Source: a virus (lineage: Duplodnaviria; Heunggongvirae; Uroviricota; Caudoviricetes). From it: a stretch of 8,242 nucleotides of DNA. The notes under the pieces were generated by a model, which worked only from the letters and a program-made list of their open reading frames with translations, ran no database searches and was not told the origin of the DNA. The DNA is taken from the IMG/VR virus record IMGVR_UViG_2698536379_000012; one strand, written 5' to 3'. This document shows positions 4,876-6,024 of this stretch, one piece after another. A program made the position numbers and the translations under genes. The stretch's first letter is position 1; each line of letters opens with the position of its first letter.

Positions 4876-5091
4876 ATGTACCAGATGGAAAAAATCACAA
4901 CGGGTGTGTCATACACCACGTCAGCGGTGGGGACGGGATACTGGTTACTGCAGCTGCTGGACAAAGTCTCTCCGTCCCAGTGGGTGGCGATAGGTGTGCT
5001 GGGGAGTCTGCTGTTTGGCCTGCTGACGTATCTGACTAACCTGTATTTCAAAATCAGAGAGGACCGTCGTAAGGCGGCGCGGGGAGAGTAA
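4876..5091 (+). CDS. S: Class II holin of the phage-21 S21 pinholin type, with dual-start motif (71/68 aa)
   Basis: [71 protein letters not shown] is close to S21 as I recall it, including the C-terminus [20 protein letters not shown]. Met1 and Met4 give the antiholin/holin dual start. Two transmembrane segments; RBS GGAGACGGGG upstream. Confidence 0.9.
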
Positions 5092-5095
5092 AGCG

Positions 5096-5440
5096 ATGAA
5101 GAAAAAATACGAACTGGTTGTTAAAGGGATAAATAATTACCCGGATAAGATTACTGTTACTGTGGCACCGGAAATTGGTGGGTATCCGTCACTGTTGTTG
5201 CCAGATGTGGCGATTAGTCTTGACCGTACTGAAGGAGCCACGCTGGAGTTTTACGAAGCTGAGGCGAAAAAGCAGGCGAAGCAGTTTTTCATGGATGTTG
5301 CTGCCGGGTTATGTGAAGGGGATGGTCCGTTGCCGGAAAAGCGGCCCATCATTTTAGAGGCGCAGGACGTGTTGATAACCTACAGAGGAAAGCTACCGGG
5401 AAGAATTACTGGTTCTCTGAAGACTCCACCGCTGGCCTGA
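5096..5440 (+). CDS. Hypothetical protein (114 aa) inserted between holin and endolysin; possibly YdfR/DUF1327-like
   Basis: RBS GGAGAG overlaps the holin stop; ATG 5096 is 4 nt after the holin TAA, indicating translational coupling. The position between holin and endolysin matches the essQ-ydfR-rrrQ order of the E. coli K-12 Qin prophage as I remember it. Family assignment is by synteny and memory only. Confidence 0.5.
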   Translation: MKKKYELVVKGINNYPDKITVTVAPEIGGYPSLLLPDVAISLDRTEGATLEFYEAEAKKQAKQFFMDVAAGLCEGDGPLPEKRPIILEAQDVLITYRGKLPGRITGSLKTPPLA

Positions 5441-5490
5441 AGACTTAACATATCCAGGGATTTGAAATCGATAAATCCTGATAAATATCC

Positions 5491-6024
5491 ATGAACGCAA
5501 AAATCAGATACGGCCTGTCGGCTGCCGTTCTGGCGCTGATTGGTGCAGGGGCGTCTGCGCCTGAAATCCTCGACCAGTTTCTGGATGAAAAGGAAGGTAA
5601 CCACACCACAGCATACCGTGATGGTACGGGTATCTGGACCATCTGCCGCGGTGCCATCCTGGTGGATGGTAAACCTGTCGTCCCGGGCATGAAGTTGTCG
5701 AAGGAAAAATGCGACCAGGTTAACGCCATTGAGCGTGATAAGGCGCTGGCATGGGTGGAGAAAAACATCAAAGTGCCGCTGACCGAACCCCAGAAAGCGG
5801 GGATCGCGTCATTCTGTCCGTACAACATTGGTCCCGGTAAGTGTTTCCCGTCGACGTTTTACAGACGAATTAATGCAGGTGATCGAAAAGGTGCCTGCGA
5901 AGCGATTCGCTGGTGGATTAAGGACGGTGGCAGAGACTGCCGTATTCGTTCAAACAACTGTTACGGTCAGGTATCCCGTCGTGACCAGGAGAGCGCGCTG
6001 GCGTGCTGGGGAATCGACAGATAA
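5491..6024 (+). CDS. R: SAR endolysin, T4-type lysozyme (GH24) with N-terminal signal-anchor-release domain
   Basis: MNAKIRYGLSAAVLALIGAGASAPEILDQFLDEKEGNHTTAYRDGTGIWTICRG has a Gly/Ala-rich weakly hydrophobic SAR helix (residues about 8-23) and the catalytic triad E35-x8-D44-x5-T50, the same spacing as T4 lysozyme and phage 21 R21. It pairs with the S21-type pinholin. 177 aa. Confidence 0.9.
   Translation: MNAKIRYGLSAAVLALIGAGASAPEILDQFLDEKEGNHTTAYRDGTGIWTICRGAILVDGKPVVPGMKLSKEKCDQVNAIERDKALAWVEKNIKVPLTEPQKAGIASFCPYNIGPGKCFPSTFYRRINAGDRKGACEAIRWWIKDGGRDCRIRSNNCYGQVSRRDQESALACWGIDR

Follow-up and report, generated by a model that had tools for sequence, protein, structure and literature searches.

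What is a third gene doing between the holin and endolysin genes of a lambdoid phage, and does its position make it part of the lysis machinery? We asked this of IMG/VR virus record IMGVR_UViG_2698536379_000012, a stretch of 8,242 nucleotides (nt) of caudoviricete DNA, hereafter the window, which is the late region of a lambdoid prophage. There, an open reading frame (ORF) of 114 amino acids (aa) lies between S, the gene of a holin of the phage 21 type, and R, the gene of a signal-anchor-release (SAR) endolysin. We propose, with a probability of roughly 0.7, that the locus is a standard lambdoid lysis cassette carrying the extra gene, ydfR, as an optional passenger and not as a core lysis part.

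Identity and evolution of the intervening gene

The 114-aa ORF matched the Pfam family PF07041, DUF1327 (E-value 1.5e-45, 153.8 bits against a cut-off of 25), and phrog_406, a group of unknown function (E-value 6.7e-64), and the identical protein is held in RefSeq as WP_000731256.1, "YdfR family protein". A preliminary description of this DNA had named YdfR/DUF1327 as a possible identity, and the Pfam search bears the name out. The essQ-ydfR-rrrQ locus of the Qin prophage of Escherichia coli K-12, which the same description had put forward for comparison, turned out to have the same layout and the same 4-nt gap between holin gene and ydfR. Conservation of the family extends across Escherichia, Shigella, Salmonella and Yersinia.

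The YdfR polypeptide has no hydrophobic or membrane segment (maximum 17-aa hydropathy 1.15) and is predicted to be soluble. It is composed of a conserved core, from residue 1 to about 76, arranged as beta-beta-beta-alpha, and a variable tail covering residues 77-114. From an alignment of 32 sequences that took in relatives from Yersinia and Salmonella, AlphaFold2 modelled the core, the only usable part (residues 1-76), with predicted local distance difference test (pLDDT) values of 72-89; the model from a 19-sequence, Escherichia-only alignment had a pLDDT of 39 and was unusable. With YdfR as the query, neither Foldseek against BFVD (at E <= 0.001) nor a sequence search of the PDB gave a match; PADLOC and NCBIfam gave none for YdfR or for the partner ORFs described below, and a viral scan with P0180 was likewise without match.

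We then compared the window with seven homologous cassettes and calculated the ratio of nonsynonymous to synonymous substitution rates (dN/dS) for each gene. For ydfR, whose dS was saturated against K-12 Qin, the six computable comparisons gave 0.21-0.48, and in the same cassettes the values were 0.07-0.15 for S and 0.04-0.16 for R. The gene is therefore under purifying selection, but more relaxed, or evolving faster, than the lysis genes. We conclude that ydfR is a real gene. It is internally mosaic, with two N-terminal alleles joined to different tails, and its longer forms of 176-183 aa carry a C-terminal extension.

An optional gene in a common cassette

The 1.3-kb segment holding S, ydfR and R matches 369 phage records, including BP-4795 and many phages converting for Shiga toxin (Stx) types Stx1a, Stx2a and Stx2c, at 97.8-98.4% DNA identity, and the YdfR of phage H-19B is 98% identical to that of the window. 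At least 80% of the segment is present in 2,498 of 5,426 complete E. coli genomes (~46%), and the routine RefSeq annotation of the locus reads "class II holin", "YdfR family protein" and "lysozyme". The arrangement is thus already known and catalogued in RefSeq, Pfam and PHROGs, and it is not unusual; when the literature was searched for previous treatment of an ORF between S and R in H-19B, no relevant work came up.

We consider ydfR optional because 436 phage records carry this holin and only 101 carry DUF1327, and because phage Min27 has S and R proteins 94% and 95% identical to those of the window without ydfR. When 1.84 billion representative proteins were searched with a profile, the family came to no more than 91 clusters at 50% identity, and these include stand-alone proteins of 72-76 aa that correspond to the N-terminal core. 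Relatives of 76-99 aa belong to the tail-gene region in Yersinia-type and related environmental prophages, where they follow K/I or separate M from L; a 103-aa member in a Salmonella/E. coli lineage adjoins a holin of a different family, PF16080. For this reason, ydfR does not appear to be bound to lysis or to one holin type. A lysis-associated role had been suggested earlier from the placement of the ORF; such a role is disfavoured by the optional presence of the gene, by the relatives in tail modules and beside the PF16080 holin, by the predicted solubility of the product and by the normal growth of cells overproducing its K-12 homologue. Most likely, YdfR is neither a component nor a dedicated regulator of lysis but an optional accessory factor directed at the host.

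The holin and the endolysin

The product of S matched PF04971, "Bacteriophage P21 holin S" (E-value 1e-32, 112 bits, cut-off 26), as well as the holin groups phrog_9876 and phrog_20, and is labelled "class II holin family protein" in RefSeq. It aligns without gaps to all 71 residues of S21 of phage 21 (OL657228.1) with 76% identity, and the last 13 residues of the two proteins are the same. In-frame ATG codons at positions 1 (4876) and 4 (4885) coincide with the annotated starts of S21-71 and S21-68 in that record, such that initiation at the second would yield a 68-aa form. The dual start and the C-terminus of S21, both claimed in the preliminary description, are therefore present, with the caveat that the N-terminus reads MYQM where S21 has MKSM, so that residue 2 is Tyr instead of Lys and the extension has no basic residue. 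The charge of Lys2 is regarded as giving the longer form, S21-71, its antiholin character. Tyr2 and the missing basic residue are common to the holins of the 933W/Min27 type. We considered that YdfR could compensate for the missing charge; this idea was rejected because the presence of ydfR does not track holin Lys2, the Min27 holin beginning with MYQMEK in a phage without ydfR and the Qin holin with MKSMDK in a prophage that has it.

A weakly hydrophobic first transmembrane domain (TMD1) and a second one (TMD2) with a G40xxxS44xxxG48 face are features of the pinholin. In the window holin, TMD2 corresponds to residues 37-53 (hydropathy 2.14), with G40, S44 and G48 identical to S21 in the alignment, and the TMD1 region, residues 7-28, is rich in Gly, Ser, Thr and Ala. 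The two-transmembrane-segment layout of S21-type pinholins thus appears to be present, and by homology the protein is assigned to the S21 pinholin family and predicted to form small pinholes, which would depolarise the membrane but not let the endolysin through.

The product of R matched PF00959 (E-value 1.9e-24). In a HMMER alignment to R21 of phage 21 (PDB 3hde), its E35, D44 and T50 stand in register with E35, D44 and T50 of R21, in agreement with the SAR domain and catalytic residues described before, and they show the Glu-8 aa-Asp-5 aa-Thr spacing of the T4-type lysozyme triad. Overall identity to R21 is 32%, whereas it rises to 91% with RrrQ of K-12 and 95% with R of Min27. The SAR segment, approximately residues 7-23 (YGLSAAVLALIGAGASA), aligns with that of R21 and is rich in Gly, Ala and Ser and weakly hydrophobic, its maximum 17-aa hydropathy being 1.69 compared with 2.14 for TMD2 of the holin. 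As the segment has no Cys, caging of the P1 Lyz type seems unlikely. By homology, the protein is a SAR-type lysozyme with the R21 triad, for which Sec-dependent export, membrane tethering and activation on depolarisation are predicted.

The succession of pinholin, SAR endolysin and spanins is well established for phage 21. Following this model, the cassette, which seems to belong to a Stx-phage-like lambdoid prophage of the E. coli O55:H7/O157:H7 lineage, would be transcribed within the Q-dependent late operon; the holin would gather in the inner membrane and trigger as pinholes collapsing the membrane potential; the depolarisation would free and activate the membrane-tethered endolysin, and the Rz/Rz1 spanins would then disrupt the outer membrane. 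Two passengers break up this otherwise standard cassette: ydfR between S and R and, between R and Rz, the antirepressor gene ant together with a small membrane ORF.

The junctions of ydfR with S and R

The start codon of ydfR is located 4 nt past the holin stop (TAA, 5089-5091), and the sequence GGGGAGAG in the last codons of S is likely to act as its Shine-Dalgarno (SD) sequence. The junction formed by GGGGAGAG, TAA, 4 nt and ATG is kept in the window, in K-12 Qin, in the cassette that we call L005, which has a ydfR of 183 aa, and in Min27; four further E. coli loci conserve it as well, with the same holin-ydfR gap of 4 nt. Where ydfR is absent, in Min27, it is R itself that sits in this position, and therefore ydfR fills a slot, together with a ribosome-binding site, that otherwise serves R. 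From the 4-nt gap and the embedded SD, translational coupling of ydfR to the holin gene is a reasonable reading, and by using a ribosome-binding site within S the gene would be expressed together with S late in infection.

On the other side of ydfR, R has no recognisable SD sequence and is preceded by a spacer of 50 nt. When the DNA of the window was aligned with that of K-12 Qin, L005 and Min27, this spacer proved conserved before R in the cassettes that bear ydfR, and it ends in a stretch matching the 3' end of the K-12 ydfR, which overlaps rrrQ. Compared with L005, the window is about 480 bp shorter at the spacer, the difference consisting of the 3' part of the 183-aa form of ydfR and a convergent ORF of 86 aa.

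The first five codons of R vary with the gene upstream: they encode MNAKI or MNTKI after ydfR and MSRKL where R directly follows S (5491-5505 of the window compared with 2721-2735 of the cassette L003). The co-variation places a recombination boundary right where R begins. A scan for promoters and terminators between 4100 and 7600 gave one weak promoter-like site on the minus strand (5378-5351) and nine low-stringency terminator-like hairpins, compared with 3.4 expected from shuffled sequences; no site or hairpin in that interval coincides with an end of S, ydfR or R.

What YdfR may do

YdfR is predicted to be a small cytoplasmic protein with a beta-beta-beta-alpha core of about 72 residues, and the only experimental lead to its function is the work on the K-12 Qin homologue. 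This protein binds the catalytic N-terminal half of RNase E, as judged by bacterial two-hybrid assays and co-purification with Rne1-598, and its residues 1-72 suffice for the binding (PMC13232886). The interaction region corresponds to the conserved core of the family. DNase-resistant nucleic acid co-purifies with K-12 YdfR, co-purification of RNA has been reported, and overproduction of the protein causes no growth defect (PMC13232886). Because of this lead, our best guess, a tentative one to which we would give less than even odds, is that YdfR may act late in phage development by modulating RNase E or the turnover of RNA in the host. A more elaborate version, which we find unlikely, would have YdfR as an RNase E modulator or RNA-binding adaptor, co-translated with the holin and altering the stability of late phage or host transcripts, and maybe as what is left of a mobile pair of genes whose other member is a convergent partner.

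Several observations weigh against an optional, host-directed passenger. Overproduction of K-12 YdfR alters few transcripts (PMC13232886), and the RNase E data come from the K-12 allele, only 34.5% identical overall to the window protein; the searched literature holds no experiment on the 114-aa allele or in a phage context. In E. coli, ydfR is nearly always found at the S-R junction with the conserved 4-nt gap, and the K-12 ydfR deletion mutant is included in the supplementary hit lists of a screen for envelope integrity with chlorophenol red-beta-D-galactopyranoside (CPRG). The placement and the envelope hit make a subtle effect on lysis timing possible.

Alternative explanations

The last two observations also speak for a different proposal, namely, that YdfR serves lysis as a dedicated cytoplasmic regulator, which would tune the triggering of the pinholin or the production of the SAR endolysin, or couple R to the translation of S, and thereby set the timing of lysis. 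We consider it quite unlikely. The consistent placement between holin and endolysin genes in E. coli, the conserved gap and the shared SD sequence agree with it, as does the overlap of the K-12 ydfR stop with the rrrQ start (ATGA); moreover, as R of the window has no visible SD, its expression could depend on upstream translation. However, nearly identical S and R proteins work without YdfR in phages of the Min27/933W type, YdfR accompanies this holin in just about one quarter of the phages, and its relatives are found in tail modules and beside an unrelated holin family. The lack of a membrane segment and the lack of toxicity on overproduction also speak against the proposal, and the CPRG hit is likely due to polarity of the kan cassette on rrrQ, itself a SAR lysozyme gene.

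Similarly improbable, in our opinion, is that ydfR is one half of a mobile module of two genes, DUF1327 and a small convergent gene for a helical protein, moving among intergenic sites in late operons and acting in exclusion, defence or counter-defence, of which the window would have kept a truncated deletion derivative. The proposal arises from five independent contexts in which an ORF of 79-110 aa on the opposite strand lies directly 3' of the DUF1327 gene or overlaps its end, and two of these partners, one of Yersinia and one of Salmonella/E. coli, match phrog_6806. The ~480 bp of L005 lacking in the window contain the 3' part of ydfR and the partner, and the dN/dS of ydfR is above that of its neighbours. 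The partners, however, fall into different PHROG families of unknown function, with homology for one pair only; PADLOC returned zero matches for either protein; and many cassettes are without the partner, including those of the window, H-19B and K-12; the small convergent ORFs could reflect chance or independent insertions. These ORFs occur in both lysis-cassette and tail-module contexts.

That the 114-aa ORF is a decaying remnant without function in this prophage is highly improbable, for while it is shorter than the 176-183-aa forms, belongs to a family as narrow as the 91 clusters mentioned and shares the prophage with other damaged genes (a TerB pseudogene and a frameshifted esterase), the inducible phages H-19B and BP-4795 have it in intact form with 98% identity, its dN/dS is below 0.5 in all comparisons, and forms of 114-116 aa are abundant, in clusters of hundreds to ~1,100 members.

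The optional presence of ydfR, its relatives in tail modules, the frequent convergent ORF and its faster evolution point away from lysis, towards host RNA metabolism or an accessory module. RefSeq, Pfam and PHROGs already list the cassette and name the extra gene, and well-studied Stx phages contain the same DNA. The residual value of the locus lies in YdfR/DUF1327 itself, a very common gene that Shiga-toxin phages express from their late operon and for which one recent biochemical lead points to RNase E. If its product were indeed a modulator of RNase E, an indirect effect on the expression of Shiga toxin and of the lysis genes in these phages would be possible.

Organization of the surrounding region

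Positions 151-8242 of the window align with the genome of E. coli O55:H7 str. RM12579 (NC_017656.1) with 99.9% identity, and the part comprising S, ydfR and R (4800-6100) is 100% identical to it at the DNA level. The first ~150 bases align with a shifted offset, about 31 nt being missing within or beside the RusA/Q junction (1-159), and three single-nucleotide differences from RM12579 are present at 2670, 7450 and 8143. The features are collected in Table 1; all five lysis proteins have both Pfam and PHROG matches. The elements given in the preliminary description for 4876-6024 are all in place there, and the homology behind them is too strong to be accidental.

Upstream of the cassette, an STnc100 small RNA (Rfam RF02076; 1923-2089, plus strand; 99.6 bits, gathering score 47) lies between the Q/TerB/DUF3927 genes and the esterase, at the place where Stx phages have tRNAs and toxin genes. 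The esterase is split into two ORFs by a deletion of 4 bp at ~3411, relative to RM12579. None of the 358 matching complete E. coli genomes (best identity 98.2%) has this deletion, which is either strain-specific or a sequencing error. Downstream, Ant and the 48-aa ORF separate R from Rz in a second interruption of the cassette, and Ant is likewise placed in Min27.

Table 1. Features of the window and convergent ORFs of the cassettes compared with it.
Feature	Position	Strand	Remarks
Q-type antiterminator	330-1151	+	
TerB-family gene	1389-1751	+	RefSeq: pseudogene, internal stop in RM12579
DUF3927 ORF	1748-1915	+	After the TerB pseudogene
SASA-family (NanS-p-like) carbohydrate esterase	2230-3447, 3426-4163	+	Two ORFs in the window; 645 aa in RM12579
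DUF1378	4311-4493	+	
DUF826	4531-4800	+	
SD-like GGGAGA	4864-4869	+	6 nt before the first holin ATG; read from sequence; also precedes S of Min27
S, class II holin, phage 21 S (pinholin) family, 71 aa	4876-5091	+	
Likely ribosome-binding site of the 114-aa ORF, GGGGAGAG	5081-5088	+	Within the 3' end of the holin gene
ydfR, YdfR family/DUF1327 protein, 114 aa	5096-5440	+	Predicted soluble
Spacer of 50 nt	5441-5490	+	No obvious SD before R
R, predicted SAR endolysin, T4-type lysozyme fold, 177 aa	5491-6024	+	
Ant-like antirepressor (P22_AR_N + ORF11CD3)	6295-6864	+	PF10547, E-value 1.4e-45; PF10549; phrog_524, anti-repressor Ant
Strongly hydrophobic ORF, 48 aa	6864-7010	+	Grand average of hydropathy 1.7; between Ant and Rz
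Rz i-spanin, 155 aa	7018-7485	+	PF03245, E-value 3.5e-50; phrog_13
Rz1 o-spanin lipoprotein, 61 aa	7238-7423	+	Other frame within Rz; PF06085, E-value 1.7e-21; phrog_3198
Convergent ORFs of compared cassettes	L005 3500-3760; L006 3244-3576; L007 4247-4486; L009 4278-4529; L011 4309-4548	-	None in the window

Comparison with known systems

The window cassette follows the genetic order of essQ-ydfR-rrrQ-rzpQ in the Qin prophage of K-12, with which it shares the 4-nt gap between the holin gene and ydfR and the Pfam family of the ydfR product, and its holin and endolysin are 79% and 91% identical to those of Qin. The two YdfR proteins (103 aa in Qin and 114 aa in the window), in contrast, share the low overall identity given above and diverge completely after about residue 75. 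Other differences are the ATGA overlap of ydfR with rrrQ in Qin, in place of which the window has the 50-nt spacer, the first holin residues (MKSMDK in Qin, MYQMEK in the window), and the presence of Ant between R and Rz in the window.

With the S21-R21-Rz/Rz1 cassette of phage 21, the window shares the 76% identical holin with Met1, Met4 and the identical C-terminus, the SAR layout of the endolysin with the triad in register, and the embedded Rz/Rz1 spanin pair. However, the identity of R is as low as 32%, the window has Tyr in place of the Lys2 of S21-71, and S21 and R21 abut in OL657228.1 with no gene between them. The window thus does differ from phage 21 by its intervening ORF, as the preliminary description had stated.

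The Stx2 phages of the 933W/Min27 type, with the order S-R-ant-Rz, resemble the window in S (94%), R (95%), the insertion of Ant and the SD junction at the 3' end of S, but they are without ydfR, R being found 4 nt after S and beginning with MSRKL where R of the window begins with MNAKI. In H-19B, BP-4795 and the Stx1a- and Stx2c-converting phages, the segments, at the 97.8-98.4% DNA identity and 98% YdfR identity already mentioned, differ from that of the window by few substitutions only, and the GenBank record of H-19B leaves the ORF unannotated. Judging from this similarity, the cassettes of the window and of all these phages are functionally the same.

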